Of a stretch of DNA of 64,000 bases, positions 29,058-54,771 are shown piece after piece. The notes beneath the pieces were generated by a model. That model saw only the letters and a list, made by a program, of their open reading frames with translations, was not told the DNA's origin and did no database searches. Made by a program: the position numbers and the translations under genes. The DNA comes from Candidatus Omnitrophota bacterium (GTDB taxonomy: Bacteria; Omnitrophota; Gorgyraeia; Zapsychrales; Zapsychraceae), in contig JAJDCB010000030.1 in NCBI GenBank assembly GCA_029261065.1, positions 132,876 to 196,875 of the forward strand. The letters are read 5' to 3'. Positions within the stretch are counted from its first letter, which is position 1. Each line of letters opens with the position of its first letter.

Positions 29058-30227
29058 ATGAGTAAATCTAAAGATCATTTGACCTGGGCCCAAGTTGACA
29101 CCAAAGCTATTAAACATAATATAGCTGTGTTGAATCGATTAGCCCAAAAAAATAAGTTTCTCCTTCCAACGCGTCCTAACAATTACAAAAGAAAGAACTC
29201 TGTTGAATTAATGCCTGTTATTAAAGCAGATGCTTATGGTCATGGGATGAAAGAAGTTGCTGCTATTTTGGATCAACAAGGCATTAAACGTTTTGCTGTT
29301 TCCGATCTCAAAGAAGGGAAGTTATTACGGAATCTTGGATTCAAACAACACATTCTTTTGTTTGAAAGCACTCTACCAACCTTTGCTCAAGATATTCTTG
29401 ATTATCAGTTAACACCAACTGTCTGCACGCTTGAGTTAGCACAGAGTCTCAATCGATTAGCTAAAAAGAGTAAAAGGCGTCTCTCTATTCATATTAAAAT
29501 AGATACGGGCATGGGGCGTCTTGGCGTTTGGTATGAGCAGGCACATGATTTTGTTAGACAATTACAAAAGTTACATCATCTCGTTATTACAGGGATTTAT
29601 ACCCATTTTCCTGTTGCTGATACAAACAAAACTTTTACGAGCAATCAAATCAAAAAGCTTTTTCAACTCATACTAACCCTAGATCAGAACGCCTTAGTTA
29701 TTCCTTATATTCATGCATCAAACAGTATGGGATTGATGGGGTATAAGACAAGTGTGCTTAATTTAGCTAGACCTGGTCTCTTGCTTTATGGATTATCTCC
29801 CTCGGTAAATAAAAAAAATGTGCTTAATCTTAAACCTGCATTAAGTGTGAAGTCCACGGTTATTTATATCAAAACATTGGAACGAGGGCGTGGGGTGAGT
29901 TATGGACAGAAGTTTATTGCTAAAAAAAGAATGAAGGTTGCTACCATTCCCATTGGCTATCAAGATGGTTATTTTCGGTCTCTTTCTAATAAAGCTTATG
30001 TTCTTATCGGTGGGTGTCGATGCCCGTTGCTAGGACATGTAACGATGGATCAGATTGTAGTTGATATCACAAAAGTTAAAGATTCTTATTTAGGAATGCC
30101 TGTTGTTATTTTAGGGTCTCAGAAAAAACAAACCATTACAGCAGAAGAACTCGCCAAACATGCCGACACGATCAATTATGAAATTGTCTGTGCTCTTGGG
30201 GCTCGCTTACCTAAAGTTCATCGTTGA
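29058..30227 (+). CDS. alr: Alanine racemase
   Basis: PLP-Lys motif 'MPVIKADAYGHGM', 389 aa, TIM-barrel plus C-terminal beta domain. Confidence 0.9.
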   Translation: MSKSKDHLTWAQVDTKAIKHNIAVLNRLAQKNKFLLPTRPNNYKRKNSVELMPVIKADAYGHGMKEVAAILDQQGIKRFAVSDLKEGKLLRNLGFKQHILLFESTLPTFAQDILDYQLTPTVCTLELAQSLNRLAKKSKRRLSIHIKIDTGMGRLGVWYEQAHDFVRQLQKLHHLVITGIYTHFPVADTNKTFTSNQIKKLFQLILTLDQNALVIPYIHASNSMGLMGYKTSVLNLARPGLLLYGLSPSVNKKNVLNLKPALSVKSTVIYIKTLERGRGVSYGQKFIAKKRMKVATIPIGYQDGYFRSLSNKAYVLIGGCRCPLLGHVTMDQIVVDITKVKDSYLGMPVVILGSQKKQTITAEELAKHADTINYEIVCALGARLPKVHR

Positions 30228-30998
30228 TGTTTTTGTGTCCACATCTGTTTTCTCTACCTTTATTTCTTTCCGTGCTTTTGTTTCTTCCTCTGCCCATTTA
30301 TCAAGAATTTCTGCTCGAGTTGATTGCTGAGTCGATTTTGCCTTTGGTGTCGCAAGTGCAGGTGTGATTGTTTCTACTTCTTTGCTGAGTATTTTCTTTT
30401 TAGGTGAGCTGGTTGTTGCTAGCGTCTTTGATTTTGTTGTATCCGTTTTTGTTACTTTTGCTGGTGTTGTCGCTTTTATTTGGGGTAAAGGTGTTTTTTT
30501 CTGCGCTAAGTTGTTCGTTGTCTTTTTTTTCTTTTGCAGGGTTGTTGCTGCCTTAGGAGGAGTTATTTTTTTCACGGTCGTTGTGGGTGTTATGGTTTCA
30601 CCTTTAGCTAATTGAGAAAGTTGTTTTAATTCTTCCGCTGAGGCCGATAGATCAGATGTGCGCGAGCATTGACTTGCTGTAATTTTACCTTTTTCATCCT
30701 TAGCATAAACCAAATATTTAGCACTTACCTGAAGTTCTTTGCTACAAATGTCATTAGTTTCTGCTAGATCTAGCGTTGTTGAAAAATTACCTTTAAATTT
30801 TTGAAAAACTTTCATTGATACAGTTGTTTCACCAAAGGCATTTTTTGTTTTATTCATAACCTTACCACTAAAGATGATGTCAGATTCAGAAAAGGCTTTT
30901 GAGACATCTAACGATTGGGCGCAACTGCATGCGGCGAAACTTTGAGTTGATGCAAAAAGTAATGTGACAAGTGTTAGTAATCCTATAATATTTTTCAT
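30207..30998 (-). CDS. Hypothetical secreted/lipoprotein with a Cys-containing N-domain and a ~120-aa T/K/P-rich low-complexity tail
   Basis: Signal peptide 'MKNIIGLLTLVTLLFASTQSFAACSC' and a tail 'TPTTTVKKITPPKAATTLQKKKKTTNN...TTPAKVTKTDTTKSKTLATTSSPKKK'. It is convergent with alr and overlaps its 3' end by 21 nt. Confidence 0.55.
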   Translation of the reverse strand: MKNIIGLLTLVTLLFASTQSFAACSCAQSLDVSKAFSESDIIFSGKVMNKTKNAFGETTVSMKVFQKFKGNFSTTLDLAETNDICSKELQVSAKYLVYAKDEKGKITASQCSRTSDLSASAEELKQLSQLAKGETITPTTTVKKITPPKAATTLQKKKKTTNNLAQKKTPLPQIKATTPAKVTKTDTTKSKTLATTSSPKKKILSKEVETITPALATPKAKSTQQSTRAEILDKWAEEETKARKEIKVEKTDVDTKTSTMNFR

Positions 30999-31013
30999 GA
31001 ATAAGTCTCCTTG

Positions 31014-32120
31014 TTAAAAGTTGTATTCAATAACGGAAATAGCAATCCCCGTAAAAATAACCGGTATCATCCAGGCAGAAAGGATAGGAGGAAAGAGTCC
31101 TCCTTTACCAAACGCCAGACAAACCGCATTAGCCACGTAGTACAAAAATCCAATAAGCATAGCAATCCCAAGGGATGTAAAAGTCGTTCCTTTGCGAGAT
31201 CTGATCATCAAAGCAAAGGGGAGGCCTGCTAAAACGATTACAAAATTTCCTATAGGATAAGCAATCTTTTGATGAAAATCGACGCGTAAGTTGTTTAGAG
31301 CCTTGGTCGCTCCACTGTTCGCGAAGCGGTCAATATAGCTTTTGAGTTGTTTGATGTTCATGGATGTGACATTAAGTTGTTGTTTAAGAAAATCTGTGGG
31401 GGTTTCTTTAATGTCCATGAGCTTTTCATCATATATTCTAATTTTATCTGGCCTGTTGATATATTCAGCGTTAAATGTTGTTACTTGAACGGTTGAGAAT
31501 TTCCAAGCGATACCAGTCCAGATACCTTTCAGAGCTACAATTTTTTGTTTAATGTTTTGATCTGTGTCGTGTTCGATAATAGTGATGCCTTCTAATTCTG
31601 TTGTATTAGGCATATAAGAATCAATAAAATAAAGACGGTTTCTAAGGCCATAGAAGGTAAGATTTTTAATTTTATTTTTTTTCTTAGATATGCGATCGAC
31701 AAGGAGAATCATATTTTCATTTCTAATCTGTTTGGTGGTCTCAGTGGCTTGCGGGATGAGTTTTTCATTAAACCAAAAAGCAACGGCGCTAATAATTAAT
31801 CCAAAGCAAAGAGCCGGTTTAGCGATTTGCCAAAAATTTAAGCCACTGGCGCGCATGGCAATGATTTCATTACTGTTGTTCATACTGCTGTATGTCAGAA
31901 GTGTGGCAATAAGGCAGGCAATGGAGGAGGTTTGGGCGATGATGATGGGTAAAAATGATAAATAATATTTTAAGAGAATTTCTAAAGGGACTTTTCTGTC
32001 AATAAACTCATCCAATTGAGTTGTGATATCAATAAGAAGGTATAAAAAGACGAAGATAAACATCGTCAGAAAGAAGATCTTAAGGATAGAGGTATTTATA
32101 TATCGTTCTATGATACGCAT
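31014..32120 (-). CDS. lptG: LPS export ABC permease LptG (YjgP/YjgQ family)
   Basis: 'RIIERYINTSILKIFFLTMFIFVFLYLLID' and 6 TM helices with a periplasmic beta-jellyroll insert. The start was set at the internal Met (MRIIERY). Confidence 0.8.
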   Translation of the reverse strand: MRIIERYINTSILKIFFLTMFIFVFLYLLIDITTQLDEFIDRKVPLEILLKYYLSFLPIIIAQTSSIACLIATLLTYSSMNNSNEIIAMRASGLNFWQIAKPALCFGLIISAVAFWFNEKLIPQATETTKQIRNENMILLVDRISKKKNKIKNLTFYGLRNRLYFIDSYMPNTTELEGITIIEHDTDQNIKQKIVALKGIWTGIAWKFSTVQVTTFNAEYINRPDKIRIYDEKLMDIKETPTDFLKQQLNVTSMNIKQLKSYIDRFANSGATKALNNLRVDFHQKIAYPIGNFVIVLAGLPFALMIRSRKGTTFTSLGIAMLIGFLYYVANAVCLAFGKGGLFPPILSAWMIPVIFTGIAISVIEYNF

Positions 32121-33193
32121 TTTATATTTAGATAAAGGGCTATGGACCCAGATATTGTGTTTGGCACCCACATGATGATCGCGGGGGGTGCAATGTTTTT
32201 AATACTTAACGCTTCGCATCCAATAGATATTAAATAATAAAAAGCCGCACAAAGAATAGCAAAAACGACATTAGCAGATTTTTCGCGACGATGCGTAATA
32301 ACAGCTATGGGAAAGCCCAACATCATAAATATAAGTGTGGCAAAAGACCATGTAATCTTACGATGGAACTCTGTTTCCAGGCGTCCCGTATCAACAAGTA
32401 AACGTTCTAAATTATGAATTTCATCCTTTAATTCCGCTAAACTCATCCCCTTTGGTTTCTTCTCAACCTTTTTCTTTTTGTTAGAAAGGTCAAGAGTCAT
32501 AAAGAAGTTGTCAAAATTCAGTTTATAAAAACTGTTAGGATTTGTTAAATTAGGCTCATCCGATGTCCCGTTGATCAGTTTTAATTTAATCTGATCCTTA
32601 CCAGGAACGGGAGTAAACTCACCTTCCTTAGCGATGATGGTTCGTGTCGGTTTGCCTTCTTGAGGCTGATAGATGGTTACATTATACATCTTATTGCCAT
32701 CAATTTTGTGAATAAATAAAATTTGATTATCAAAAGAATGAATAAACATTCCCGCCTCAATAAGGGCTGTAGGATTTTGCACACCTAATGTTTTAAGAAG
32801 TTTATGTCGTTTATGATGCGTATCAGGAATGATGCGATCGTTGATGATGAGGGCGACTAAACTAAGGATGATGCCAATAATGAGAAGAGGGGTAAGAAGT
32901 TTTGTAAGATGAATACCGTTGGCGCGTAGGGCCAGGATTTCGTTATCAGCCGATAATCGACTAAACCCAAGAATGACCGCCGCCAAACAAGAAAATGGCA
33001 AAATGTAACCAAGCCACAAAGGAATCGAATAAAGAAAAACTTCGCCAATAACAGAGAGATGGACACCCTTATTTATGACGAGATTAGTCAGTTGAATAAG
33101 ATTTCCTAACATAAAGATGCCAACAAGAATCGACATCGCCAGGAAAAAAGGAACGATGCATTCGATGAGGATGTAGTTTCTTATAATTTTCAT
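32108..33193 (-). CDS. lptF: LPS export ABC permease LptF (YjgP/YjgQ family)
   Basis: 'MKIIRNYILIECIVPFFLAMSILVGIFMLGN' matches the LptF/G N-terminus. It is tandem with a second copy and is the upstream gene of the pair. The start was set at MKIIRNY. Confidence 0.8.
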   Translation of the reverse strand: MKIIRNYILIECIVPFFLAMSILVGIFMLGNLIQLTNLVINKGVHLSVIGEVFLYSIPLWLGYILPFSCLAAVILGFSRLSADNEILALRANGIHLTKLLTPLLIIGIILSLVALIINDRIIPDTHHKRHKLLKTLGVQNPTALIEAGMFIHSFDNQILFIHKIDGNKMYNVTIYQPQEGKPTRTIIAKEGEFTPVPGKDQIKLKLINGTSDEPNLTNPNSFYKLNFDNFFMTLDLSNKKKKVEKKPKGMSLAELKDEIHNLERLLVDTGRLETEFHRKITWSFATLIFMMLGFPIAVITHRREKSANVVFAILCAAFYYLISIGCEALSIKNIAPPAIIMWVPNTISGSIALYLNIKCVS

Positions 33194-33206
33194 GGTATAA
33201 AAGTTT

Positions 33207-33262
33207 GTCATTCCCGCGAACACGGGAATCTATATGGATACCTGTTGTCACGGGTATGACAG
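33207..33262. repeat. REP/MITE-like element (gtcattcccgcgaacacgggaatc plus a degenerate inverted copy) between comFC and lptF
   Basis: Left arm 33207..33230. Right arm 33241..33262 (cctgttgtcacgggtatgacag) reverse-complements to ctgtcatacccgtgacaacagg. It belongs to the same family as loci 10.8 kb, 19.1 kb and 24.3 kb. Confidence 0.5.
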
Positions 33263-33272
33263 TTTTAAATCA

Positions 33273-33998
33273 TTAACGAATCGCTAGCGTCAAAACTCCA
33301 ACAGTGTTAGCCCCTGCTTCTTTCAGTGTTTGTGCTGCTTGCGAAGAGGTTGCCCCTGTTGTTAGTAAATCGTCTATAAGAAGAATAGATTTGTTATTTA
33401 CATTTGAAGGAGTACTCATTTTAAAAGCCGATGTGAGGTTTGTCCAGCGATCTTTTCGACTTAATGATGTTTGATTCTTTGTGTGTTCTACGCGTTTTAA
33501 AATATTTGGCTTTAGGGGAATCTTGTAATACTTAGATAATCCTTGGGCCAGACAAAAAGCCTGATTATACCCCCTTTCCCGTTGTCGCGTTGGATGGAGG
33601 GGGATGGGAATAAGCAAATCAAATTGTTGGATATCTAGACTGTATTTTTTGACATGGGAAATCATTAGATTCGCTAATGTGTGGCGTAGCATAGTCTTTT
33701 GACCATATTTAAAGGAATGAATCATTTTTTTTAAATGAGCTGTATAAAGACAAGCTCCCCAAGCAAAATCAAAATGGGGCTTGTAGGTGCGGCAATTATG
33801 GCAAAGGGCAGCCACATAGGGCCCCTGTAGGTGTCTGTTACACTTTTGACAGAAAGGCGGGAAGTTCATCCTCATGCATCTCAAACAATCCGGACACACT
33901 CCTTCCTGGGAATTTTGGGTAGGTATTTGATTATGGCAAATAAAACAATTACGGGGGAAGACCAGATCACATAATCCGGTAATGATGTGTTGAATCAT
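33273..33998 (-). CDS. comFC: ComF family protein (ComFC-like; double zinc ribbon plus phosphoribosyltransferase domain)
   Basis: N-terminal CxxC...CxxC ribbons ('CFICHNQ...CPDCL...CQKCNRHL...CHNC') and a C-terminal PRTase motif 'ILLIDDLLTTGATSSQAAQTLKEAGA'. Confidence 0.8.
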   Translation of the reverse strand: MIQHIITGLCDLVFPRNCFICHNQIPTQNSQEGVCPDCLRCMRMNFPPFCQKCNRHLQGPYVAALCHNCRTYKPHFDFAWGACLYTAHLKKMIHSFKYGQKTMLRHTLANLMISHVKKYSLDIQQFDLLIPIPLHPTRQRERGYNQAFCLAQGLSKYYKIPLKPNILKRVEHTKNQTSLSRKDRWTNLTSAFKMSTPSNVNNKSILLIDDLLTTGATSSQAAQTLKEAGANTVGVLTLAIR

Positions 33999-34005
33999 TG
34001 GGGTT
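33878..34005. repeat. Direct repeat copy 1 (128 bp) covering comFC codons 1-40 plus 7 nt of leader
   Basis: 124 of 128 nt are identical to 34727..34854. Confidence 0.85.
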
Positions 34006-34570
34006 TATGAAATCCGATTTTGTTTTTAGATTTTATTGGTGGTTCCAGTAGTTTTTTAATGGCTTCAAAGACAATTTTAAATTGATGATCATATTTATTC
34101 TCCATCATTTCTATTTTTTGTCTCAACTGTTTGTGTGTAGACATCAATTCACGTAATTTGGTAAATGTCCGCATAATTTGGATGTTGACCTGAATGGCGC
34201 GTTTGCTTTTAAGGACGCTGGAAAGCATTGCAATACCTTGCTCGGTAAAGGCATATGGGACGTATTTTAAATTGTGTCCTCTTTTCAAGGTCACAATTTG
34301 TGACCTTGAAGAGGCAGGATTAGCCTTCTCGGAAGTTAGAATTTGTGATCTCCAAATTTTGATTTCTTCTTTTGTCATTTGGAACATAAAATCTTTTGGA
34401 AAACGTTCTAGGTTTCGTTTAACGGCTTGATTAAGGGCTTTTGTTTCGACACCATAAAGCAGGGCTAAGTCTTTGTCTAGCATTACTTTATGATTTCTCA
34501 GGAACAGTATTTTATTTTCAATAATTTCAGATGATGAGATGTTTGTTGATGCTGATGATTTTTTTGTCAT
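33995..34570 (-). CDS. ORF6N-domain protein (KilA-N-related, phage/mobile-element associated DNA-binding family)
   Basis: 'LDKDLALLYGVETKALNQAVKRNLERFPKDFMFQMTKEE...SQIVTLKRGHNLKYVPYAFTEQGIAMLSSVLKSKRAIQVNIQIMRTF' matches the conserved ORF6N core. Its stop overlaps the comFC start (ATGA). Confidence 0.7.
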   Translation of the reverse strand: MTKKSSASTNISSSEIIENKILFLRNHKVMLDKDLALLYGVETKALNQAVKRNLERFPKDFMFQMTKEEIKIWRSQILTSEKANPASSRSQIVTLKRGHNLKYVPYAFTEQGIAMLSSVLKSKRAIQVNIQIMRTFTKLRELMSTHKQLRQKIEMMENKYDHQFKIVFEAIKKLLEPPIKSKNKIGFHKPQ

Positions 34571-36200: not shown

Positions 36201-39200
36201 TTATTTTCTTCTCTTCATTAAAAAAACACTTCCGTAAGTATCAATTACCCACACACCGTCTTTGGCATTCGTCATAAATACAATACCGTTACCATATTTA
36301 ATGGAAGGGTCTTTAACCTCCTGTGTAAATGTTTTTTTGATTTGATCGTGGATATTGATATTGGCCATGGTCCATTGAAATGTCAGAAGACGATTCCCAT
36401 CTGTTGCCATAGGAATTAAACGCGTTTGAGGGTGTCCCATGATGGGTTCACCGGTTAAATTATTTGGAGGTCGAGGAATTTCTATTCCCGTGTATCCGGA
36501 AGGTTTATAACCAATCAGCCAAGTTTTAACGTTTGTCTTTGGATCATAACGTGATATGCCTGACTTAGGCATGTAGTAAGTAATCCTACCATCAGAAAAA
36601 ATTAATTTCTCAACATCTAGGTTTTCTTTAACACGTTGGGTTAATACTTTGCTTTTAAAATTGTATTGCCAAAGGCCATTTCGAGAAACATCTCCTGCGA
36701 TGCTTAACCATAGATTATCGTTTTGCTCATCAATGGCAATGGATTTAATTTGATAACTTCTTCCTGCATCTAAGGCGTTGTCAGCTGACAGATTGGTTGT
36801 TGAAGCAAGAATTTCATAATCCCAATTTTGAGTGTTAAGAGCAATCAAACCAGATTTCCCTTTCAGTCCAAACTTTTGATCTTTACTCAGCGGACCGACA
36901 CCGACATAAAGTAAGTCTTTATGACTGGCTAAGGATAAAATGTTATCAAAGGGGAAGGTGGTCGTTGTGTTTAATATTTTTGCTTGGTTTGCAGAAGTTG
37001 TAGGCTCTGTGACAAGGTAGTATCCCTGATAATTTGAACCAGATTTAAGGGCATGTTGAGAGGGAATAATTGTTCCTGTTTGTTTCTTAACGGCAATGAT
37101 ACCGACATTTGTGCCTACAAATATAAATTGATCATTGGTAGCCATGGCTGTAACTTCTAGCGGTTTTTTGGGTGAGCTTTGTACTTTTATAAACCCAACT
37201 TTACGAATTTTATCTGGATAATTTAATGGATACTCATAAAAGTTAACAAGATTTAACCCTTGACCTTGCACATGAATATCTACAGTGTAGAAGGTATTGT
37301 CATGAATAAAGAATTTTTCAAAGAAGAAGTTTGATCGTGTTTCAATTCTACCTAAACTGCTTTGCGCATCACCTAGTTGGTAGCCAACGCGAGTTGGCAT
37401 CTTTTCGAGTGTATAGTCTGAAACCGATTCATTTGATTTGCTTTTATTAGGAGATCCTGTTGTGTACACCTCATCAACAAGGGTATAGGCGCTACTACGT
37501 GCGCTAATGGCTCCATCTGTATTGTGTGATTGAGATGATTTTGGAGAGTTATAAGCTACAAATACGGCGGTACCTTGATTATTATGTCCTCTGACAACGC
37601 TATTTTTAAAAGAGTCGCTGCCATCATCTGGAAACATAGTACTGTAATCAACATCTTCGCCTAAGCGAGGTGGTTCTAACTCGGGACTCATTCGTAAATA
37701 GTAAGGGCTTTTGTCCAATTCAAGGTAAGCTTGATATTTGGGTTCGAAATTTTTTTTGACTCCAAGTTTAACTAATTTTAGTTCCAGTCGTCCTCGAAGA
37801 AGTTTTGCATCTGAAGAACTGTTTTTATAATTGTTTTGTTCAAGCACAGCGATCATTTTATTTAATGTTTGCACAAGCTGCGCCTTTTTTTTCGCTATTT
37901 CAAGAGCATTAAGATAAGGCCAAACATGCTGCCGCCAGGCAACTAAATTATTAGCATCATTGGATCGAATCATCCCCGCAAACACGGATTGCAAAGTTTG
38001 GATTAGCTCAGGGCTGTGATTCAAAGCGGCATGGGTAGTGGCTGTCCTTATTAAATTAGGTAAAATCGAGAGATCTTCTAGTTGCCAAATCGGATGGGAG
38101 TAAGGGAAACTATTTGTTAGGATTTGTAATTGAGCGATTGAAGATGCATTTTTTTCGTATGGTATTAAATGATTGAAACTGACAAGACGTACAAAATCGT
38201 TTGTGCTTTTAGTGTAAGCTTGAAATAATTTTTTTAATTTTGGATAAAGTCTATGATGGTTATCAATTGCTGTGCAATACAATAAACCTTTAAAGCGTGC
38301 GGGATGATAATCATTCTCCGTCTCAATAAATGCTGTGATGATATTTTTTAAAAATGGAACAATTTTACTCGAATCTTTAGGCTTGCTATCCATAATAAGA
38401 TCCTTCTTGTCGCGCCATGATTGCCAATAGGCTTTTGAATTAGTAAGATTTTTATAATGGTTTTTATAAAAGTCTTCTTGAAATTTAAGAAGCTGTTTAC
38501 GCATATTCATGAACTGATCATTGAGTTTTTTAACATGATATTCATCGTCATGAATTTGAACCGGTAAAGGCCATTCGCCACGTTCATGATAATAACGGCT
38601 TGTGTTGGGATACTTTATGGGATTCGGAATTTCAAGGCTAACTTCTAATCCTGTATCGACACGTCTGGCGTGTTCGCGTGCTAATTCGTAGTAAAGCGTG
38701 TAGCTGCGTAAAAAGGCGGAGACGGTACGTTTTTTCTTTTCTAAATTGTCATAAGAGGTATGAGGTCTACTGGAAGCTTTTTTTAAAATCGTTGAGGTGT
38801 CTCCCCAAAAACTTCTATTAACGTTAATTTTATTTTTTGACGGAAGAGTATTATCCGTTTTAGATTTGATCTGCACAACGGTGACGGCTTTCGTATTGCC
38901 TGGATGAAACGAGCTTGAGAGACCTGCTGTCATTCCACCAAATCCATCTGCTAACGTCCAACCCATCTCATACCAACTACGGGCTAACCAATAACGTGCT
39001 TTTTGTGTAGGGTTTAAACTAAAGGCAACCTCGGCATGTTGAATGGCTAGATCATGTTCGGCGCTTGATAAGAACAGAGGAACACGTTTGAGAAAGAGTT
39101 TGGCTTCCTCTACAGGGGAAATTTGTTTTACATCGGTTGTTTTAACATTAATAGCATTAAGGATTTTTTTATTTAAGATATTACGCGCTTTTTGAATATT

Positions 39201-40304
39201 TTGTGTTGGAATGTTAAATTTAATTTTTTTGGTTGAAAGATCTTTCATGGAATGAATATTAAGCGAGACGGCTAATTCCGTTTGTCCTTGAGTATATTTC
39301 AAACTTCCATCAAGTAATAGTAGAGATGACTTTAGCTGTTGATCCATCTGTGTTAATCGTAATTCTTCGTTGAGGTAACGAAGATGCTCTCGGTCTAAAA
39401 CTATGACTTGCGAAGATTTTGACAAATCTGCTGTCAGAAACATTTTTAAGGCTTCAATGTGGCCATCTAAGGCGACGGTCGGTTCTTCACTTTTAAAATC
39501 CAAAAAAGCAATATGATGTCTTTGGGGAGCTGGTGTTTTAAGAGTTTGATTCGTTTGGACAATAGCCTCGACAATCCAATCAAGATTTTTTTTCACATGG
39601 GCTTGTTCTAGAAGAACAGTATTTAATGTTATGGCTGTTGTACTTTCTACAAAACGTAAACGTATCATGGGTGGCTCAGATGTTGGCACTTTTTCTACAA
39701 TAAGCAAAACATCCGCCGATAATAAATTCCCTAACTTTGCCGATTGTTTTGGATCGATAAAGCCTCCAGCACTTAGAGATAGCTCATCAATGGCGTTCCA
39801 GATCTGTGTTCTTTCTAAAAGGACAAGATTATCGAGTTGAGAAAGTTGAACTTCTAGTAGATCGATGACGGGCTCATAGACATTGCGCTGATTTTGACCG
39901 GGGATGATGGCTATTTGAATGGAGGGAAGATTTGAAGGCGGGATGTAAGTACTTTCTGTTAACCCATCTTTGAATGGAGCTGCAGATTTAAATTCGCTAA
40001 TGTGTTGTATCTGTTGAGGTGTGTCATTGTAATTTGGTACTGTTCCAATAGTGCTTTTGGATAATGATGCAGGGTCGATCCCTCTTTTGCGCAATTCATT
40101 ATGGGATTTCTTTAGTTGCCTTTTATAATCCTTGGATTTCATCCATTGGGAATAATCGTTATAAAAGTCAGTCGAACCTTGAGATTTTGCCATCTTAGTA
40201 TTCCAATATATCCTCTCATAGTGATAAGGACTAGAAGGCCGCAGGAATATAACAAACATACCTGTGAGAATGAGGGAATAAATGAGTAATCTTTTTGCGT
40301 TCAT
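36201..40304 (-). CDS. Giant (1367 aa) secreted multidomain protein: N-terminal TM/signal, two CsgG/LpoB-like periplasmic modules, a long TPR/helical region and a C-terminal beta-propeller. It is a paralogue of 54800..57892.
   Basis: Hydrophobic N-terminus 'LLIYSLILTGMFVIFL'. The modules 'IQIAIIPGQN...LVLLERTQIWNAIDELSL' and 'HIAFLDFKSEE...VIVLDREHLRYLNEEL' fit a CsgG-like pattern. The C-terminal region 'ILSLASHKDLLYVGVGP...GKSGLIALN...NLWLSIAGDVSRNGLWQYNFKSK' is colinear with the C-terminus of the 1030-aa protein. Confidence 0.7.
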   Translation of the reverse strand: MNAKRLLIYSLILTGMFVIFLRPSSPYHYERIYWNTKMAKSQGSTDFYNDYSQWMKSKDYKRQLKKSHNELRKRGIDPASLSKSTIGTVPNYNDTPQQIQHISEFKSAAPFKDGLTESTYIPPSNLPSIQIAIIPGQNQRNVYEPVIDLLEVQLSQLDNLVLLERTQIWNAIDELSLSAGGFIDPKQSAKLGNLLSADVLLIVEKVPTSEPPMIRLRFVESTTAITLNTVLLEQAHVKKNLDWIVEAIVQTNQTLKTPAPQRHHIAFLDFKSEEPTVALDGHIEALKMFLTADLSKSSQVIVLDREHLRYLNEELRLTQMDQQLKSSLLLLDGSLKYTQGQTELAVSLNIHSMKDLSTKKIKFNIPTQNIQKARNILNKKILNAINVKTTDVKQISPVEEAKLFLKRVPLFLSSAEHDLAIQHAEVAFSLNPTQKARYWLARSWYEMGWTLADGFGGMTAGLSSSFHPGNTKAVTVVQIKSKTDNTLPSKNKINVNRSFWGDTSTILKKASSRPHTSYDNLEKKKRTVSAFLRSYTLYYELAREHARRVDTGLEVSLEIPNPIKYPNTSRYYHERGEWPLPVQIHDDEYHVKKLNDQFMNMRKQLLKFQEDFYKNHYKNLTNSKAYWQSWRDKKDLIMDSKPKDSSKIVPFLKNIITAFIETENDYHPARFKGLLYCTAIDNHHRLYPKLKKLFQAYTKSTNDFVRLVSFNHLIPYEKNASSIAQLQILTNSFPYSHPIWQLEDLSILPNLIRTATTHAALNHSPELIQTLQSVFAGMIRSNDANNLVAWRQHVWPYLNALEIAKKKAQLVQTLNKMIAVLEQNNYKNSSSDAKLLRGRLELKLVKLGVKKNFEPKYQAYLELDKSPYYLRMSPELEPPRLGEDVDYSTMFPDDGSDSFKNSVVRGHNNQGTAVFVAYNSPKSSQSHNTDGAISARSSAYTLVDEVYTTGSPNKSKSNESVSDYTLEKMPTRVGYQLGDAQSSLGRIETRSNFFFEKFFIHDNTFYTVDIHVQGQGLNLVNFYEYPLNYPDKIRKVGFIKVQSSPKKPLEVTAMATNDQFIFVGTNVGIIAVKKQTGTIIPSQHALKSGSNYQGYYLVTEPTTSANQAKILNTTTTFPFDNILSLASHKDLLYVGVGPLSKDQKFGLKGKSGLIALNTQNWDYEILASTTNLSADNALDAGRSYQIKSIAIDEQNDNLWLSIAGDVSRNGLWQYNFKSKVLTQRVKENLDVEKLIFSDGRITYYMPKSGISRYDPKTNVKTWLIGYKPSGYTGIEIPRPPNNLTGEPIMGHPQTRLIPMATDGNRLLTFQWTMANINIHDQIKKTFTQEVKDPSIKYGNGIVFMTNAKDGVWVIDTYGSVFLMKRRK

Positions 40305-40520
40305 GGCTTTGTATTATAGGGTAGTATTGGATTTTTGACAAGTTTGGTAGAAGATTACCGCAGGTGTATGTGGTTTTTATAGCATGTATATATAACCTGT
40401 TTATTTACAACTATTTATGTAAAAAGTGAGTCTTTGAGAATATCATTATTAATTTTTATTCATACGTAACTTGTTTATTAACAATGTTTTAAGAAAAATA
40501 AATTAATCCCTCTCCCTCCC

Positions 40521-40626: not shown

Positions 40627-41070
40627 ATGTTGTTTCGTATTAATAAATTTGAAGGTTTTATCATTTTGGTCATTGGGTGTTTTATCATGTTTTCTTGTTA
40701 TAACAAGGCTCAATTGACTAAGGAAAGTAAGGGTTGGCCAACTGTTGAGGCTCAAGTGATCTCAACTAATATGATAGAGGAGGAGTTTTTTCCTTTAAAT
40801 TACTTGGGTTTGAAATGGAAGTCTCAGGTGACATATTCTTATGATGTTGCTGGAACGAATTACACCAAGGATATAGAGAAGAGTTTGATGAATCACGCTC
40901 GTGCTGAGAAATTTATTCAAAAATATCCTGTGAATGAAAAGTTAAATATTCACTATAATCCAGAAAACCCAGATGAAATGGTCTTTGATCAGGGCATCCA
41001 TAGAGAATTGTATCTGAGTTCAATTTTGGGTATTGGTATTGTGGTGGCTGGGTTGTTGTTGTGTTTGTAG
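40627..41070 (+). CDS. DUF3592-family membrane protein
   Basis: N-terminal TM helix, 'KGWPTVEAQVIS...LKWKSQVTYSYDVAGTNYT', C-terminal TM helix. It is a paralogue of the next gene. Confidence 0.55.
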   Translation: MLFRINKFEGFIILVIGCFIMFSCYNKAQLTKESKGWPTVEAQVISTNMIEEEFFPLNYLGLKWKSQVTYSYDVAGTNYTKDIEKSLMNHARAEKFIQKYPVNEKLNIHYNPENPDEMVFDQGIHRELYLSSILGIGIVVAGLLLCL

Positions 41071-41089
41071 TATTAAGGAGCGCATTAAA

Positions 41090-41542
41090 ATGAGGTTACA
41101 TATTAATAAATTTGATAGTTTAATTATTCTTGTCATTGTCTCTTTTTTCATGATTTCCTATTTTAAAAAGGCTAATCTTACGCAAGCACGTAAAACATGG
41201 CCAACGGTTGAAGGCCGAGTGGTAGCAACAGAAATAATAAAGGAAGAATACTTTCCTTTAGGTTACTTTGGGCTGAAATGGAGGGCTCAAGTAACATATT
41301 CTTATGATATAGGTGGTATTAAATATACAGATGATATAAAAACATGTTTTATGAGTAGTTCAGACGTTCAAGAATTTGTTAACGGTTATAATACAAATGT
41401 TTATGTGAATGTTAATTATAATCCAGAAAATTCGAGCGAGACAAATTTGGGTCATGTAAATGGTTATGACAATTTTCTTTGTAATTTGCCTATTTTTATG
41501 TTTGTTTCATTTGGGGATTCAAATATTTTCTTTTGGGACTAA
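41090..41542 (+). CDS. DUF3592-family membrane protein (tandem paralogue)
   Basis: 'KTWPTVEGRVVATE...LKWRAQVTYSYDIGGIKYT', about 45% identical to the previous ORF. The start was set at the ATG preceded by RBS aggag. Confidence 0.55.
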   Translation: MRLHINKFDSLIILVIVSFFMISYFKKANLTQARKTWPTVEGRVVATEIIKEEYFPLGYFGLKWRAQVTYSYDIGGIKYTDDIKTCFMSSSDVQEFVNGYNTNVYVNVNYNPENSSETNLGHVNGYDNFLCNLPIFMFVSFGDSNIFFWD

Positions 41543-41568
41543 AGAAAAAAAGAGGAAAAGAGCACATT

Positions 41569-41952
41569 ATGCTGGCATTTTCTGTAGAATTTAAATCAGG
41601 GGTTCCCATGTATGAGCAGGTGGTGTTTGCTGTGAAGAAAGCGATGATTAGTGGGCAATTAAGGGCTGGGGAGAAGTTTCCTTCGGTAAGAGAGATGAGT
41701 AAGGAATTAAAGATTAATCCTAACACCGCTCAAAAGGTTGTTGCTCATTTAGTTAGAGAAAAGCTCTTAACGATTGAACCGGGGAAGGGAAGCTTTGTTA
41801 ATGATTTTACGCGCGCCACAGATGAGAAGTTTGATGAAGTATTAGTGCCTCAAATTGAGCAGCTGGTTGTAGAGGCTAAGCGATTATCGATTGATCAAGA
41901 TGAAATCTTAAAGGCCATTCAAAATTTGTGGAATAAAGAGCAAGGAGAGTAG
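41569..41952 (+). CDS. GntR-family transcriptional regulator (short YtrA-like type)
   Basis: wHTH 'EKFPSVREMSKELKINPNTAQKVVAHLVREKLLTIEPGKGSFV', about 127 aa. It is followed by an ABC ATPase and permease, as in ytrA-type operons. Confidence 0.8.
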   Translation: MLAFSVEFKSGVPMYEQVVFAVKKAMISGQLRAGEKFPSVREMSKELKINPNTAQKVVAHLVREKLLTIEPGKGSFVNDFTRATDEKFDEVLVPQIEQLVVEAKRLSIDQDEILKAIQNLWNKEQGE

Positions 41953-41956
41953 AGAT

Positions 41957-42877
41957 ATGGCAAACGTCATTGAAATCCAGGGGTTAAGCAAAAGCTTTGC
42001 AAAGATTCAAACGGTAAAAGATGTGAGTCTCACGATTCCTAGGGGAAGTATTTTTGCTCTTCTAGGTCCTAATGGGGCTGGCAAATCGACAACGATTAAG
42101 ATGTTGATGAATTTTATTCAACCGAATCAAGGAAAAATATCAGTGTTAGGTGTTGATGGGCAGAAACTAGGGCCCAAACAATTAGAACAGATCGGTTATG
42201 TATCGGAAAATCAAGAAATGTTGCCGTGGATGACGGTGGATCAGTTTCTTAAATTTTGCAGCACAATGTATCCAACGTGGAATCAGGGGTATTGTCAGCA
42301 GCTAATGGAGAAGTTTCGCCTGCCGGGGAATCAAAAAATCAAAGATTTATCACGCGGGATGAAGATGAAGGTGGCTTTGATTTCATCTATCGCTTATCGT
42401 CCGCAATTACTTATCTTAGATGAACCGTTTAGCGGCCTTGATCCCCTGGTTCGTGAAGAGTTGATCACAGGGGTTTTAGATCTGACTGAAAATGAAAATT
42501 GGACGATTCTACTTTCTTCACATGATATGGAAGAGGTGGAGCGGTTAGCGGATCATGTCGGTATCATGAATAACGGTGAGCTTGTTTTGAATGAAGAAAT
42601 AGAATCTCTACAACAGCGGTTTCGTCAGATAGAGATCGTGCTAGAACAACCATCTGTCGGTACGATCCCCGAAAAGGATGACTTGTATTTGATAGAGAAT
42701 CAGGATCGTCTCATTCGTTTTGTTGATAGTCAATATCAAGCGCTGCAAAGGGAAGAACTCTATAAGCAACTATTTCCATCGTTAGTAAGCGTGAACGTTA
42801 AGGTGATGACATTAAGAGAAGTCTTTATTGCACTTGCCAAACATTATTCTATTCAAGGATTAAAGGCCGCCTCATGA
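41957..42877 (+). CDS. ABC transporter ATP-binding protein
   Basis: Walker A 'GPNGAGKST', signature 'LSRGMKMKVAL', Walker B 'LILDEP', 306 aa with a C-terminal extension. Confidence 0.9.
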   Translation: MANVIEIQGLSKSFAKIQTVKDVSLTIPRGSIFALLGPNGAGKSTTIKMLMNFIQPNQGKISVLGVDGQKLGPKQLEQIGYVSENQEMLPWMTVDQFLKFCSTMYPTWNQGYCQQLMEKFRLPGNQKIKDLSRGMKMKVALISSIAYRPQLLILDEPFSGLDPLVREELITGVLDLTENENWTILLSSHDMEEVERLADHVGIMNNGELVLNEEIESLQQRFRQIEIVLEQPSVGTIPEKDDLYLIENQDRLIRFVDSQYQALQREELYKQLFPSLVSVNVKVMTLREVFIALAKHYSIQGLKAAS

Positions 42878-44926: not shown

Positions 44927-45973
44927 ATGAGAAAAATATTACTACTTATTATTATGATGGCCATGTCTTTACCGGCTATGGCGCAGGAGATGACGGCACA
45001 GGAGATTGTGCAAAAGGCGAAAGAGAAATATCAATCTATGAAAAGTTACTCTTCAAAGGTTCGTAGTATCTCAGAGGGGGCTATTTCGGGGCGACCATTT
45101 AAGGATTCAAGGAAGGCCGAGGTTATAATGGCTCGTCCTAATCTCTATAAAATTACGTGGAGCAATGTGAAGCCTTATCAAGGGAAGGAAGATGTTGTTT
45201 GGAATAGTGGCGAAGGGGCTTATATGTATAGTTCTATGACGAACGGTTATTCTAAATATAATTCCGATGTTATGATTTTTGGTGCAGCAACAGGGATCTC
45301 TTCAAACGCCACATTAACGATGCCTTCAATCTTTTATGCCTTGCCGGAAATGCCGTCATTTTTTGATTCATTAAAAAAATTGGAATATTTAGGGGTTGAG
45401 AATGTGGCTGGCAAAGATTGTTATAAGTTAAAGGGCAAAACGCTTTATTCATCCGAGCATTATATCTGGATTGAGGTGGGGCAGTTTTTGTTAATTAAAA
45501 ATCAATATGTTCATGATGTTGATTCTTCTATGGCTGAGAAAGTTGAGATGAGCGACGAACAATATGCAGAATCTGTTCGGGCAATGGGGGTTGAGGTGAC
45601 AGATGAGAAAATTGCTTTTATGAAAAAAATGTCTGATTTTGGACAGGAAATGACAGAAAATGTAGAAATAGATTTGCAGCGTAAAGAAATTTTTACAAAT
45701 ATTAAGGTTGATGAGTCGGTTGAGAATTATAATTTTGATTTTAAAGTGCCAGCCAGTGCCAAACTAGAAACTAATTATTTTGATGCAATGTTTTCTGGTG
45801 ATATTGATTTGGATAAGCTCCAAGAATCTCAAGAAGCTCTCATGGAGATGATGGGCAAGGAAGACTTTGATCCAAAGGAAACTCAGAAAATAATGAAAGA
45901 TTTGGAAGATTCAATGAACGTAGATTCAAAGAATGAGAAAAATAAAGAACATATGCAAGATGATGCTTATTAG
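44927..45973 (+). CDS. Secreted LolA-fold-like (outer-membrane lipoprotein carrier/sorting-like) protein with an acidic C-terminal extension
   Basis: Signal peptide 'LLLIIMMAMSLPAMAQE' and an N-terminal pattern 'QEIVQKAKEKYQSMKSYSSKV...PNLYKITW' resembling LolA/LolB/DUF4367-type unclosed barrels. This is a weak assignment. Confidence 0.45.
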   Translation: MRKILLLIIMMAMSLPAMAQEMTAQEIVQKAKEKYQSMKSYSSKVRSISEGAISGRPFKDSRKAEVIMARPNLYKITWSNVKPYQGKEDVVWNSGEGAYMYSSMTNGYSKYNSDVMIFGAATGISSNATLTMPSIFYALPEMPSFFDSLKKLEYLGVENVAGKDCYKLKGKTLYSSEHYIWIEVGQFLLIKNQYVHDVDSSMAEKVEMSDEQYAESVRAMGVEVTDEKIAFMKKMSDFGQEMTENVEIDLQRKEIFTNIKVDESVENYNFDFKVPASAKLETNYFDAMFSGDIDLDKLQESQEALMEMMGKEDFDPKETQKIMKDLEDSMNVDSKNEKNKEHMQDDAY

Positions 45974-45991: not shown

Positions 45992-46813
45992 ATGAGGATA
46001 CGAAATATTACTATTATGGGAGTGTTGTGTTTGCTGCTGACGAGTTTCGCTTCTTCTCAAGAAGTTGTTTCAAACGAGAACGATTCTTCTTTTGAGTTAG
46101 TTGTATTTCCAGCGCAGTTTTTTGAAAATAAAGAGCAGCAGGCTGGAGAACATCATTATTTTGGTGGTCAGACGATATATTTACCGTTTGTGACAAATGG
46201 ATCGAAACCTTCAGTGCTAAAGGTTGAGCTGGTGCAAAAAGCATTTTCGTTAACTGCGCAGTATGAAACAAATGCGCAGGTTGATTTGGATGCAAATCAG
46301 ATTGTCATAGATCTTCCCATTGTTAAAAGAGAAGTTGTATTTGAAATGATCATCAAACAGCAAGACATGACGGAAAAAAGTTGGATGGATGTTGTTCGTG
46401 TTGACATTCATGTCTATCCCAACGATATCCTTAAGCCCATGCAAGAGTGGGCCAAAGAGGTTCAATTGCGGATTAAAGATCGAGAAGGGGTTTTGACGCA
46501 AGTATTGGAGGAAAAAGAAATTGAATATGTCGATTACAGGGCGGCTTACCCTAAGAAGGAAGATATTAAAGCTGTGACGATTGTGGTGGGGGATCCTGAT
46601 GAAAAATTTTTAGAGGAGAAGACGTGGCATGCCACGGAGAGTTTGATTATATTACGCAACAAAGAGGGGGGATTGCCCAAGGTTTTGGTGCGTCCCATTA
46701 AGACGGGGATGTTGATTGACTCTTCAGTGCCCACGGTTGGGAAGCTTAAGAATAATCCGCGAAATCAAAAAATGTTGTTGGAGACCATACGATTATCCAA
46801 CACGCTTAATTAA
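45992..46813 (+). CDS. Hypothetical secreted protein
   Basis: Signal peptide, 273 aa. No family was recognised. Confidence 0.5.
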   Translation: MRIRNITIMGVLCLLLTSFASSQEVVSNENDSSFELVVFPAQFFENKEQQAGEHHYFGGQTIYLPFVTNGSKPSVLKVELVQKAFSLTAQYETNAQVDLDANQIVIDLPIVKREVVFEMIIKQQDMTEKSWMDVVRVDIHVYPNDILKPMQEWAKEVQLRIKDREGVLTQVLEEKEIEYVDYRAAYPKKEDIKAVTIVVGDPDEKFLEEKTWHATESLIILRNKEGGLPKVLVRPIKTGMLIDSSVPTVGKLKNNPRNQKMLLETIRLSNTLN

Positions 46814-46828
46814 ATAGGAGGAAGTAAA

Positions 46829-47863
46829 ATGAAATTAGTCGAAAAAATGAAATGTGTTGTAACGATGATTTTGGTAGGAGGGGTAATGTTAGTGTTCTCA
46901 ACATCATCTTTCGCTCAAGAAGTCGTCAAAGAAAGTGAAGGTGAAAGTAAAAGTGAAGTGGTTACCCCATCTTACACAGTCGCTGTATTACCTTTTGAAG
47001 CCAGCGGCAATGAGTTAAAGGATGTGGCCCCAGAGGTGTCGCTTCTTATGAATACTTGTCTTTCTGGGAAAGATGGGATTGCCTTGGTCGAACGGGACAA
47101 GTTGGATAAAGCGATCTCAGAGATGGAGATTGGGATTTCAGGAACAGTGGATCCCCAAATAGCGGCTCAAATTGGACAAATTACGGGTGCTAAAATTCTG
47201 ATTACAGGTCGCGTGTTTGTTGTCCAGAATGAATTGTTTTTGGTCGCCAAGATTATTGGTTCTGAAACAAGCCAGGTGTTTGCTGAAACAGTTAGTATTT
47301 CTTTTAAAGAGTCTCACGCGGATGCGACGAAACAACTGGCTCAAAAAGTTGCCAGAACAATTGCTGCTAAAGGTGAAACATTAATCGCGAAGAAAAAGCA
47401 AACGCATGATTCTCTGGAAGATTTAAAGTACATGTTAGAAGGACGAGAGAATCTTCCTGTTATTTCTGTAGCCATTATTGAACGTCATGTGAGCCAACTC
47501 ACATTAGATCCTGCGGCAGAAACAGAAATTAATATGACATTAGCCAGTGTCGGCTTCCCCATAGTTGATCCTAATACAACTGTCGAACAACCAGACATTG
47601 AAATTACAGGCGAAGCCTTTAGCGAATTCGGCATGAGAAACGGCAATCTTGTTTCCACCAAAGCACGCGTAGAAGTCAAAGTCATCGAACGCACAACCGG
47701 CAAAATCCTCGCCGTCGATCGCGAAACAGGTGTCGCTGTCGATTTATCCGAACAAATAGCCGGCAAGACAGCCATTCAAGAAGCCGCTAAGAAAATTGCT
47801 ATTCGTATCATTCCAAAGATTGTTGATTCTATGGAAGATTCTAAGGTGTTTGTTTCGGAATAG
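46829..47863 (+). CDS. Secreted protein with tandem CsgG/LpoB-like periplasmic modules
   Basis: Signal peptide, 'SYTVAVLPFEASGNELKD...IALVERDKLDKAISEMEIGISG...GAKILITGRVF' and a second related module 'LPVISVAIIERHVSQL...'. Confidence 0.55.
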   Translation: MKLVEKMKCVVTMILVGGVMLVFSTSSFAQEVVKESEGESKSEVVTPSYTVAVLPFEASGNELKDVAPEVSLLMNTCLSGKDGIALVERDKLDKAISEMEIGISGTVDPQIAAQIGQITGAKILITGRVFVVQNELFLVAKIIGSETSQVFAETVSISFKESHADATKQLAQKVARTIAAKGETLIAKKKQTHDSLEDLKYMLEGRENLPVISVAIIERHVSQLTLDPAAETEINMTLASVGFPIVDPNTTVEQPDIEITGEAFSEFGMRNGNLVSTKARVEVKVIERTTGKILAVDRETGVAVDLSEQIAGKTAIQEAAKKIAIRIIPKIVDSMEDSKVFVSE

Positions 47864-52787: not shown

Positions 52788-53602
52788 GAAAGTTTATTTT
52801 TATGATAGGCGTGTTGGCGTTGTTGATACCAACACAAGGTTTAGCGGATAGTAAAGAGAAGCCCGTGATTGTGATTATTCCTTTTGAGAATGCGACAGGA
52901 AAAGAGGCGTATGAATCTCTATCGACAGGCCTGCCTGATTTGTTAACTGCTTTTCTTTCTCCCTATGATGAGAGGGTAACGATCATTGATCGAGGTTTAT
53001 TAGAATCGGTCTTCTCAGAGAAAAGTTTATCATGGGAAGGTTTTACCAGCGAGAAATCTTGGACGCAGTTAGGTCAGTTATCTCAAGCCGATTATATTTT
53101 ACGGGGAAGCGTGTTATTTTCAGATAATAAATTTACGATTAATGCATCACTTTATGAGCTCGAGTCCACACAGTTGTTAAAAGCATTTGAAAGTTATGGG
53201 AGCTCAAAAAATTTATCTCATCTTGTTCAAAAGATAACAGTACAATTAGCCGAATATTTAAAAACAGATATCAAATTAATTGAGGATCTCCCCATCGATG
53301 ATAACCCTGAGAAAAGTTTTAATTTTATATCAGGAGTTGGATATTATTACAACGGTCAGTTTGAGTTGGCGTTAACATATTTTATGAAAGTTTTGGAATC
53401 GCATCCTGATGATGAATTAGCACAATATTGGTTGGCTAAAACTTTTCAAGAGGCAGGGATGGTGGATCATGCGCAATTGGAGTTTAGGGTGTTTTTAAAG
53501 AAACATCCTAAGAGTGAAAAATTTTCAGAGGTTAAAGGTTATCTCATTATCCCAAAAGAAGAAAAGGAGAAGGGGCATGAAGAAGTTAAAGTTACCGATT
53601 AA
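52784..53602 (+). CDS. Secreted CsgG/LpoB-like module fused to a TPR domain
   Basis: Signal peptide. 'KPVIVIIPFENATGKEAYESLSTGLPDLLTAFLSPYDERVTIIDRGLLESVFSEKSL'. The C-terminal TPR 'YYYNGQFELALTYFMKVLESHPDDELAQYWLAKTFQEAG'. Confidence 0.6.
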   Translation: MRKFIFMIGVLALLIPTQGLADSKEKPVIVIIPFENATGKEAYESLSTGLPDLLTAFLSPYDERVTIIDRGLLESVFSEKSLSWEGFTSEKSWTQLGQLSQADYILRGSVLFSDNKFTINASLYELESTQLLKAFESYGSSKNLSHLVQKITVQLAEYLKTDIKLIEDLPIDDNPEKSFNFISGVGYYYNGQFELALTYFMKVLESHPDDELAQYWLAKTFQEAGMVDHAQLEFRVFLKKHPKSEKFSEVKGYLIIPKEEKEKGHEEVKVTD

Positions 53603-54236: not shown

Positions 54237-54771
54237 AGTTGTCGTCACAAGTTTTATTTTAATCATTTCGTCATTTGTTGTTTCTTTTAGCAACGCTTGG
54301 GCGTTAAGCGTAGAAGAAGCGTACAGGGCCATTCCTCATCAAAGAACTCTTTTTAATGAAGATAAAGCTAAGATGTCTTTGACAGAGAAAGAATTCTTAG
54401 ATGAATTTTTTGCCCTAACAGACTTAGCTGTTATCCAACGTGTTGAATTGCTTTTATGGACCACAACCCATGGCAAGAAGGGAAAAAATTCAAAGAATTA
54501 CGATAATATCCTCTCGCAATTAGAAGATTTAAATGAGCCAACGAATTTGAGGGAAGTGCATCAATTAATTATTGGCGCCATCAAAGATCAGCAATCTTTT
54601 TATCAAGAGTGGGATAAACAATATAAAAGTCTCCCGTCACACCCAAAAGTTCGTAGCGCTAGTCAGAAATTACGACAAGCCTACAGTATTCTCATGCGAC
54701 TTTATCCACAGGAAGGCCCGCATAATAAGGCTGCCTTATTTGATCATTTGTGTGCGTTGGATTTTTTGTAG
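54229..54771 (+). CDS. Hypothetical secreted protein
   Basis: Signal peptide 'VVVTSFILIISSFVVSFSNAWA', 180 aa. Confidence 0.45.
   Translation: MNRVVVTSFILIISSFVVSFSNAWALSVEEAYRAIPHQRTLFNEDKAKMSLTEKEFLDEFFALTDLAVIQRVELLLWTTTHGKKGKNSKNYDNILSQLEDLNEPTNLREVHQLIIGAIKDQQSFYQEWDKQYKSLPSHPKVRSASQKLRQAYSILMRLYPQEGPHNKAALFDHLCALDFL

Follow-up and report, generated by a model that had tools for sequence, protein, structure and literature searches.

In this study, we analysed a 64,000-nt stretch of DNA (the window) from contig JAJDCB010000030.1 of a Candidatus Omnitrophota bacterium and, within it, the minus-strand gene for a protein of 1367 amino acids (aa). This protein is called T below, and residue numbers are those of T unless another protein is named; P is its 1030-aa paralogue, encoded at 54800..57892 on the plus strand. 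T is assembled from known periplasmic folds and belongs to a family that is widespread in bacteria of the Planctomycetes–Verrucomicrobia–Chlamydiae (PVC) group and has no name. We suggest, with a confidence somewhat short of even, that T is anchored in the inner membrane and is the large subunit of a periplasmic complex tied to envelope signalling, in which it would act as a scaffold and bind a ligand; this complex would be a conserved but uncharacterised three-protein module of PVC bacteria. The conserved PVC cassette that links such proteins to extracytoplasmic function (ECF) signalling is a more valuable result than the T gene itself.

Architecture of T and its family

The reading frame of T contains no internal stop, and six long-form representatives of the family (P0009/10/11/13/14/16; 1243–1308 aa, one of them labelled Candidatus Omnitrophota) each align with T over residues ~125–1366 in a single high-scoring segment pair (HSP) at 26–29% identity. 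Because six independent homologues align across this length in single HSPs, the T gene is real and uninterrupted and is not an assembly artefact. The closest complete relative found, a protein of locus L005, is 31.8% identical to T over 1305 columns, again in a single HSP over residues ~125–1366. With family alignments as input, AlphaFold2 gave two models, one of residues 100–720 (predicted local distance difference test, pLDDT, 84; predicted template modelling score, pTM, 0.83) and one of residues 690–1367 (pLDDT 83, pTM 0.80). The gene and the segments of its product are as follows.

36201..40304, minus strand: complete open reading frame (ORF) of T, 1367 aa plus stop (ATG start; ORF list and end-to-end alignment with six long-form homologues)
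40313..40341, minus strand: sigma-70-like promoter match TTGTCA-17-TATAAT (11 of 12 consensus positions; a consensus match only)
40233..40298, minus strand: hydrophobic segment, aa 3–24, the sole one in T
39930..40232, minus strand: K/S/Y-rich linker, aa 25–125 (specific to T, not in the six aligned long-form homologues)
39537..39920, minus strand: alpha/beta module 1, aa 129–256, with a predicted TolB-N/LpoB/PelC/CsgG-like fold (Pfam, AlphaFold2, Foldseek)
39153..39518, minus strand: alpha/beta module 2, aa 263–384, a diverged repeat of module 1 with the motif L-D-R-E-H-L-x-x-L-x-x-E (alignments and AlphaFold2)
37710..39116, minus strand: predicted TPR-like helical solenoid, aa 397–865 (AlphaFold2; Foldseek matches to TPR proteins)
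37419..37709, minus strand: linker, aa 866–962, largely predicted disordered (AlphaFold2 and column occupancy)
36204..37418, minus strand: predicted C-terminal beta-propeller, aa ~964–1367 (AlphaFold2, Foldseek, family profile)

The promoter match ends 8 nt before the ATG, and since no Shine-Dalgarno sequence lies between them, the T mRNA may be leaderless. The N-terminus of T, MNAKRLLIYSLILTGMFVIFLRPSSP, contains no cysteine. Its hydrophobic segment is followed by R-P-S-S-P, and because there is neither a lipobox nor a good signal-peptidase site, residues 3–24 probably form an uncleaved signal anchor. Of the ~90 homologues inspected, almost all have a classical Sec signal peptide directly before the first module; a lipobox-like pattern is present in 8 of the ~90 N-termini, and in several of these it lies too near the N-terminus to be genuine. 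The modelled part of the N-terminal linker (residues 100–118) is of low AlphaFold2 confidence.

In the models, each of the two modules is an alpha/beta fold of ~125 aa that has no long hairpins. Module 1 has the family motif L-x-L-L-E-R-x-x-I-x-x-x-I-x-E and is 30–36% identical to the N-terminal modules of three neighbouring gene products of 344, 272 and 1213 aa (30% for the 344-aa protein). The only Pfam match of T is a partial CsgG match at residues 140–202, which scores 22.2 bits (cut-off 20.8) and covers just positions 34–95 of the 210 in the profile. Foldseek searches of the Protein Data Bank (PDB) matched the modules to the TolB N-domain, GNA1162, LpoB and PelC (E = 3e-3 to 7e-2, probability 1.0). 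The solenoid that follows is interrupted by a disordered insertion at residues 459–512. The linker behind it has an S/N-rich stretch at residues ~900–960 and, at its start (residues 871–890, window ~37635..37694), the motif P-E-x-E-P-P-R / S-P-E-L-E-P-P-R-L...D, five positions of which are invariant among the long forms. This could be a short linear docking motif, although AlphaFold predicts it to be unstructured.

The propeller has 28 predicted strands and thus about seven blades. Foldseek related it to BamB, to the periplasmic sensor propellers of BT4673 and BT4663 and to WD40 propellers (E~1e-8), and a broad family profile searched against PDB sequences matched the BT4673 sensor propeller at E = 7.6e-22. 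Judged by such profiles, the propeller of T is Reg_prop-like at the level of the family; T alone has neither a Reg_prop nor a PD40 match in Pfam. NCBIfam holds no family for T. No HisKA, HATPase, receiver or AraC output domain was found in T, and no catalytic or kinase domain was seen in T or in the family members inspected.

The first-pass annotation had described a 4.1-kb ORF for an exported protein of 1367 aa that has an N-terminal anchor, followed by two CsgG-like modules, helical repeats and a C-terminal propeller. The uninterrupted frame with its six end-to-end homologues, the single hydrophobic segment together with the Sec signal peptides of the homologues, and the AlphaFold2 and Foldseek results bear out this description; the helical part, put at ~700 aa, is shorter than supposed, the solenoid being of ~470 aa (residues 397–865). 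As a whole, the earlier interpretation was only partly supported.

The family of T was collected by an exhaustive HMMER search with a profile made from P and two fragments of T, which gave 1460 family representatives at E<=1e-3, 190 of them at E<=1e-30. A word-indexed protein search with full-length T returned T alone, and a scan of the genome collection with peptide patterns of T gave no relative. T agrees with the family definition, in which an export signal precedes two tandem modules, one with the L-V-E-R...E motif and the other with L-D-R-E-H-L...E (profile, alignments and hidden Markov model). Most other members are ~1050 aa long and have the double module as well as a solenoid and a propeller. 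All through the family the N-terminal double module is kept and the C-terminal part varies, being a propeller or ankyrin, HEAT, TPR, WG-repeat or lectin-like domains. Fused signalling domains were sought in the family and rejected: the N-terminally extended members add only further domains of the binding type (CarboxypepD_reg, DUF1349, HEAT, TPR and WG repeats). In Pfam and NCBIfam, no model covers the family beyond the partial CsgG match, which matters for the annotation of its 1460 representative clusters.

Family genes form tandem arrays of up to five genes, and large arrays of paralogues occur in other PVC bacteria. At L086 (1..18230), five consecutive genes encode ankyrin-rich proteins of ~1400 aa, four of which were shown to have the CsgG-like module. 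At L085 (1..17282), four large CsgG-like genes alternate with genes for HEAT-repeat proteins and one for an FGE-sulfatase.

Partner proteins and the conserved PVC cassette

Elsewhere, genes of the T family stand next to genes of two small secreted proteins, whose counterparts in the window head a tightly spaced plus-strand operon that also includes P and two TPR proteins. The main genes of this operon are listed here.

45992..46813, plus strand: secreted 273-aa protein with no known domain, presumed third subunit (orthologue of the gene preceding the 344-aa family at 59 of 69 loci)
46829..47863, plus strand: secreted 344-aa protein with a CsgG-like module, presumed partner subunit (orthologue of the gene directly preceding T-family genes elsewhere)
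49146..52787, plus strand: 1213-aa protein with one CsgG-like module, TPR and BNR/Reg_prop propellers (architecture analogous to T; putative second type of large subunit, same operon)
52784..53602, plus strand: 272-aa protein with a CsgG-like module and TPR (same cluster as the 344-aa family)
54800..57892, plus strand: P, short-form paralogue of T, 1030 aa, with a signal peptide of cleavable type (BLASTP against T)

The 273-aa and 344-aa genes are followed by those of a 417-aa protein and the 1213-aa protein, and P lies six genes downstream of the pair. The 344-aa protein is 41–68% identical to its counterparts elsewhere and the 273-aa protein 38% identical to its counterpart at L002. NCBIfam has no family for either protein; when their family profiles were searched against PDB sequences, that of the 344-aa family gave no match and that of the 273-aa family gave only noise. 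At all of the loci L001–L005, a T-family gene comes directly after a gene of the 344-aa family (secreted, ~310–345 aa), and at L001–L003 and L005 this gene in turn comes after one of the 273-aa family (secreted, ~280–330 aa), the sequence of L004 ending upstream. At L001 (1..7888), from an Omnitrophota metagenome-assembled genome, a gene of at least 3800 codons with a protein-kinase domain stands directly upstream of a cassette of 329-, 323- and 1273-aa products.

The 344-aa family, which is more conserved, was the query in a scan of the species-representative genomes of GTDB. Confirmed matches were obtained at 186 places, 80 of which were kept as loci; these are mostly from Verrucomicrobiota, Planctomycetota, Lentisphaerota/Victivallales, Kiritimatiellia and Omnitrophota. 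ORF clustering revealed a recurrent order, namely an ECF sigma factor gene (Pfam Sigma70_r2 and r4_2), a gene for a single-pass anti-sigma-like protein, a gene of the 273-aa family, one to six genes of the 344-aa family and one to three genes for large proteins. Counts were made over the 69 loci with an ORF of the 344-aa family, 58 of which have at least 1.5 kb downstream. A gene of the 273-aa family is found upstream in 59 of the 69, an anti-sigma-like gene within four genes upstream in 34 and an ECF sigma gene within the same distance in 23 (37 loci overall), while the double module of the T type occurs within three genes downstream in 42 of the 58. The ECF sigma/anti-sigma pair often heads the cassette in Verrucomicrobiota and Planctomycetota.

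Four of the loci carry unexpected taxonomic labels: the records of L006, L011, L048 and L057, labelled Acidobacteriota (a 3.59-Mb chromosome, OY760074.1) and Bifidobacterium/Bifidobacteriaceae, have cassettes of the PVC type. At L006, the 344-aa protein of the window has a counterpart with 67% identity, and the 1213-aa gene an orthologue. These labels are probably wrong.

Taken with the architecture of T, the cassette suggests how such a complex may be put together. Given that the double module resembles the module of the co-encoded 344-aa protein in kind, it may be a docking or assembly element, which would attach T to its 344-aa and 273-aa partners, supplied in trans from 45992..47863. The solenoid would serve as a spacer or scaffold. 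The propeller, whose place is taken by other repeat domains in paralogues, is most simply read as a binding module; its ligand may come from the envelope or the environment and may be a glycan, in the manner of the Reg_prop propellers of Bacteroides hybrid two-component sensors. No enzymatic activity of T would be expected. The linkage to ECF sigma/anti-sigma genes in two other phyla suggests a role for the complex in sensing envelope conditions or reacting to them, as an input or an output of the pathway; the complex of T would report to an ECF-type envelope-stress pathway or be its main product. The comparison with the hybrid sensors BT4663 and BT4673 (Reg_prop, PF07494) extends to the type of propeller repeat as judged from the broad family profile, and to what would in T too be a periplasmic ligand-binding module that feeds or accompanies transcriptional signalling. 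These sensors have two propellers and T only one; T also lacks a Y_Y_Y domain and any output through a histidine kinase, receiver or AraC domain, and the signalling genes of its family, where present, are separate ECF sigma and anti-sigma genes, in contrast to the same-chain output of the hybrid sensors.

Several observations weigh against this interpretation. T is not adjacent to its presumed partners, lying 5.7 kb upstream of the pair on the opposite strand, and so does not occupy the family-typical position directly downstream of them. Neither the 64-kb window nor the Omnitrophota-like loci L001–L007 contain a cassette-type ECF sigma factor, and for this reason the link to signalling is extrapolated from other phyla. 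Even there, the co-operonic genes may be the regulon of the ECF sigma factor rather than its sensor. The fold matches of the N-terminal modules are weak (the E-values given above, with template modelling scores of 0.4–0.6), and so is the match to BT4673 of a profile made from the long forms only (E = 0.0076). No experiment or publication on any family member was found in the literature.

A more far-reaching proposal, which we regard as unlikely, is that the cassette, with its ECF sigma and anti-sigma factors, its 273-aa-family protein and one or more each of the 344-aa-family proteins and the large double-module proteins, is an undescribed envelope-sensing system of PVC bacteria. In it, an assembly of modules of the CsgG/PelC fold would present interchangeable periplasmic receptors made of repeat domains (propeller, ankyrin, HEAT, WG, lectin-like) and control the ECF sigma factor through its anti-sigma factor, and Omnitrophota would have kept the receptor complex uncoupled from the sigma pair. 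Searches of the accessible literature on CsgG-like and ECF proteins in Planctomycetes and Verrucomicrobia gave no description of the family or the cassette, and the paper on ECF reclassification makes no mention of CsgG. With its conserved periplasmic module and linked ECF pair, the cassette offers a testable entry point to the biology of the PVC envelope, and cultivable planctomycetes and verrucomicrobia carry it. PVC bacteria have unusual and poorly understood envelopes and very large repertoires of ECF sigma factors.

Comparison with known envelope systems

Three other roles of T were weighed against that of a scaffold subunit in a signalling-linked complex. They are less well supported, because lipoboxes, barrels, polymer-synthesis genes, tol-pal genes and adhesin domains were not found and because the family is multi-copy and exchanges its domains. 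The first, which we consider unlikely, is polymer export of the Pel or curli type, in which T and the 344-aa protein would contribute their modules to a ring beneath the outer membrane, with the solenoid in the part of the PelB TPR scaffold and the propeller handling the substrate. Its appeal lies in the match of the modules to the PelC dodecamer and the weak CsgG match in Pfam, in the analogy of the TPR-like scaffold to PelB, in the clustering of several module-bearing genes and in a LolA-like DUF2092 gene at 44927..45973, upstream of the 273-aa gene. T shares with PelC, CsgG, LpoB and GNA1162 (PDB 5t10, 4q6l and 4hrv; PF03783) the predicted fold, the helix motif E-R-x-x-I/L-x-x-x-L-x-E and, probably, the location in the envelope. 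Those proteins, however, are single-domain outer-membrane lipoproteins, whereas T has large extra domains. T and the 344-aa protein lack the lipobox that PelC and CsgG need for attachment to the outer membrane, and modules of ~125 aa leave no room for the transmembrane hairpins of CsgG. Among the neighbours scanned there is no gene for a barrel porin, a glycosyltransferase, an amyloid subunit or polysaccharide synthesis, nor any Pfam or NCBIfam match to the curli genes csgA, csgB, csgE or csgF, and a linkage to ECF sigma/anti-sigma genes would be atypical of such exporters. That T is a true CsgG channel is ruled out by the missing lipobox, the partial Pfam match and the lack of a transmembrane hairpin region. 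Like the TPR scaffolds of the PelB and LpoA type, T combines long, probably periplasmic helical repeats with a small alpha/beta domain of the kind found in lipoproteins; unlike them, it has both elements fused in one chain, with neither the porin domain of PelB nor the known link of LpoA to a penicillin-binding protein.

The second role, which appears quite unlikely, is in envelope biogenesis of the Tol-Pal or Lpo type, where T would bridge the inner membrane to the peptidoglycan or outer membrane and regulate wall synthesis or outer-membrane tethering. TolB is the best structural match of the N-terminal modules (chain 7mx5_B, E = 2.9e-3, probability 1.0, at the level of fold only) and LpoB the next, and the window is rich in genes for envelope biogenesis (BamA, LpxD, LpxC, LolCE, LptFG, Alr). 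As in TolB (PDB 7mx5), a periplasmic protein, an N-terminal alpha/beta domain of the same fold is combined in T with a C-terminal propeller, which in TolB binds proteins. T differs from TolB in having two alpha/beta modules, ~470 aa of helical repeats before the propeller and a membrane anchor, and is about three times larger; the TolB propeller is six-bladed and of the PD40 type, whereas that of T has about seven predicted blades, is Reg_prop-like at the level of the family and shows no detectable PD40 repeats. Pfam gave no TolB_N match to T at the sequence level. The tolQ-tolR-tolA-tolB-pal context is absent from the genes scanned around T and five homologues, with no tolQRA or pal gene among these neighbours. 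T is no lipoprotein, in contrast to LpoA and LpoB, and multi-copy arrays with ankyrin, HEAT or WG variants are ill-suited to a single-copy core machine. An orthologous relationship of T to TolB is rejected, as Pfam gave no PD40 match and the genes scanned showed no tol-pal context.

The third, improbable role is that of a surface adhesin or attachment factor, as the first-pass annotation had put forward, with T exported to the cell surface and its propeller binding host or prey cells in an epibiotic or predatory lifestyle: the literature ties Omnitrophota to very large proteins and to traits of predation or host dependence, adhesion is a possible function of beta-propellers and repeat domains, and arrays of paralogues that differ in their repeat domains would also suit a varied set of binding specificities, but the role finds no support, given that T has one N-terminal anchor and no lipobox, that Pfam and NCBIfam searches found no outer-membrane barrel, autotransporter, Ig, cadherin, fibronectin or other adhesin domain, that every fold match of T is to a periplasmic type of protein, that no secretion-system genes adjoin T among the genes scanned, and that free-living Verrucomicrobiota and Planctomycetota widely carry the family, in operons tied to ECF sigma/anti-sigma genes.

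Paralogue P and the chromosomal setting of T

BLASTP aligned T124–694 with P31–588 (27% identity, E = 5e-64) and T993–1366 with P692–1030 (25% identity, E = 3e-36), the aligned segments being colinear and not of low complexity. It had been proposed that the N-terminal modules of the two proteins align and that their last ~230 aa are colinear. The pairwise alignment confirms the former with similarity that is not limited to low-complexity regions; the C-termini are colinear as well, over ~375 aa of T rather than ~230. T and P were never sisters in 100 neighbour-joining bootstraps, each being closer to proteins from other genomes, and the duplication is therefore old, as had also been suggested.

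The large central expansion of T that was supposed to have followed it gives way to the opposite explanation. Nearly all of the 50 family members in the alignment have the helical stretch T690–870, but only ~30% of its columns are occupied in P, which is missing the linker and the bulk of the solenoid's second half. Since this stretch is near-universal in the family and six other proteins are colinear with the long form from end to end, the alignments indicate that the length difference is mainly a deletion of ~180 aa in P and not an expansion of T. All that is extra in T is the ~95-aa linker at residues 871–965, which is confined to the long-form group, and the N-terminal linker of ~100 aa. 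In NCBIfam, P has a sub-threshold match only.

The genes on either side of P are also of note. Directly after it, at 57892..60929, lie tandem genes for TPR proteins of 509 and 503 aa that are 60% identical, the start codon of the former overlapping the stop codon of P. Before it, in the same operon, ORFs of 240 and 180 aa at 53514..54771 correspond to one 393-aa orthologue at L006. Because this orthologue aligns in two different reading frames (53682–54194 and 54301–54768), the gene is frameshifted or split, by decay or sequencing error.

T is native to the host chromosome. Its gene has a GC content of 0.375 and a GC3 of 0.31, the same as the neighbouring genes, and the window holds the housekeeping genes BamA, LpxD, LpxC-FabZ, LysS, LolCE, ClpB, RadA, CysS, MetG, Alr and LptF/G; every named best match of its RadA is from Omnitrophota (72–79% identity). 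A foreign-island origin of the region is ruled out by this native composition and housekeeping context, and with it the earlier description of the region as an island. That T is the only large minus-strand gene is true of the part from 34.9 to 64 kb, and five other minus-strand genes lie at 30207..34570. Nor is T exceptional as a giant protein, as the window has other large genes of 1213 and 1030 aa and the related Omnitrophota contig of L001 encodes one of at least 3800 aa; the literature on giant genes in Omnitrophota concerns genes far larger than that of a 1367-aa protein. Rfam and tRNA scans across the 64-kb window found no RNA genes.

Three further features of the window were observed. 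In the lipid A gene cluster, LpxC and FabZ are encoded by one fused gene (3240..4568), for a bifunctional deacetylase/dehydratase. On the minus strand at 33273..34570, the gene of an ORF6N-domain protein adjoins that of a ComF-like phosphoribosyltransferase with a double zinc ribbon; the ORF6N domain is common in mobile elements. Divergent from the T gene, at 40627..42877, are two tandem paralogous genes for DUF3592 membrane proteins (50% identical), followed by genes for a GntR-type regulator and an ABC ATPase.

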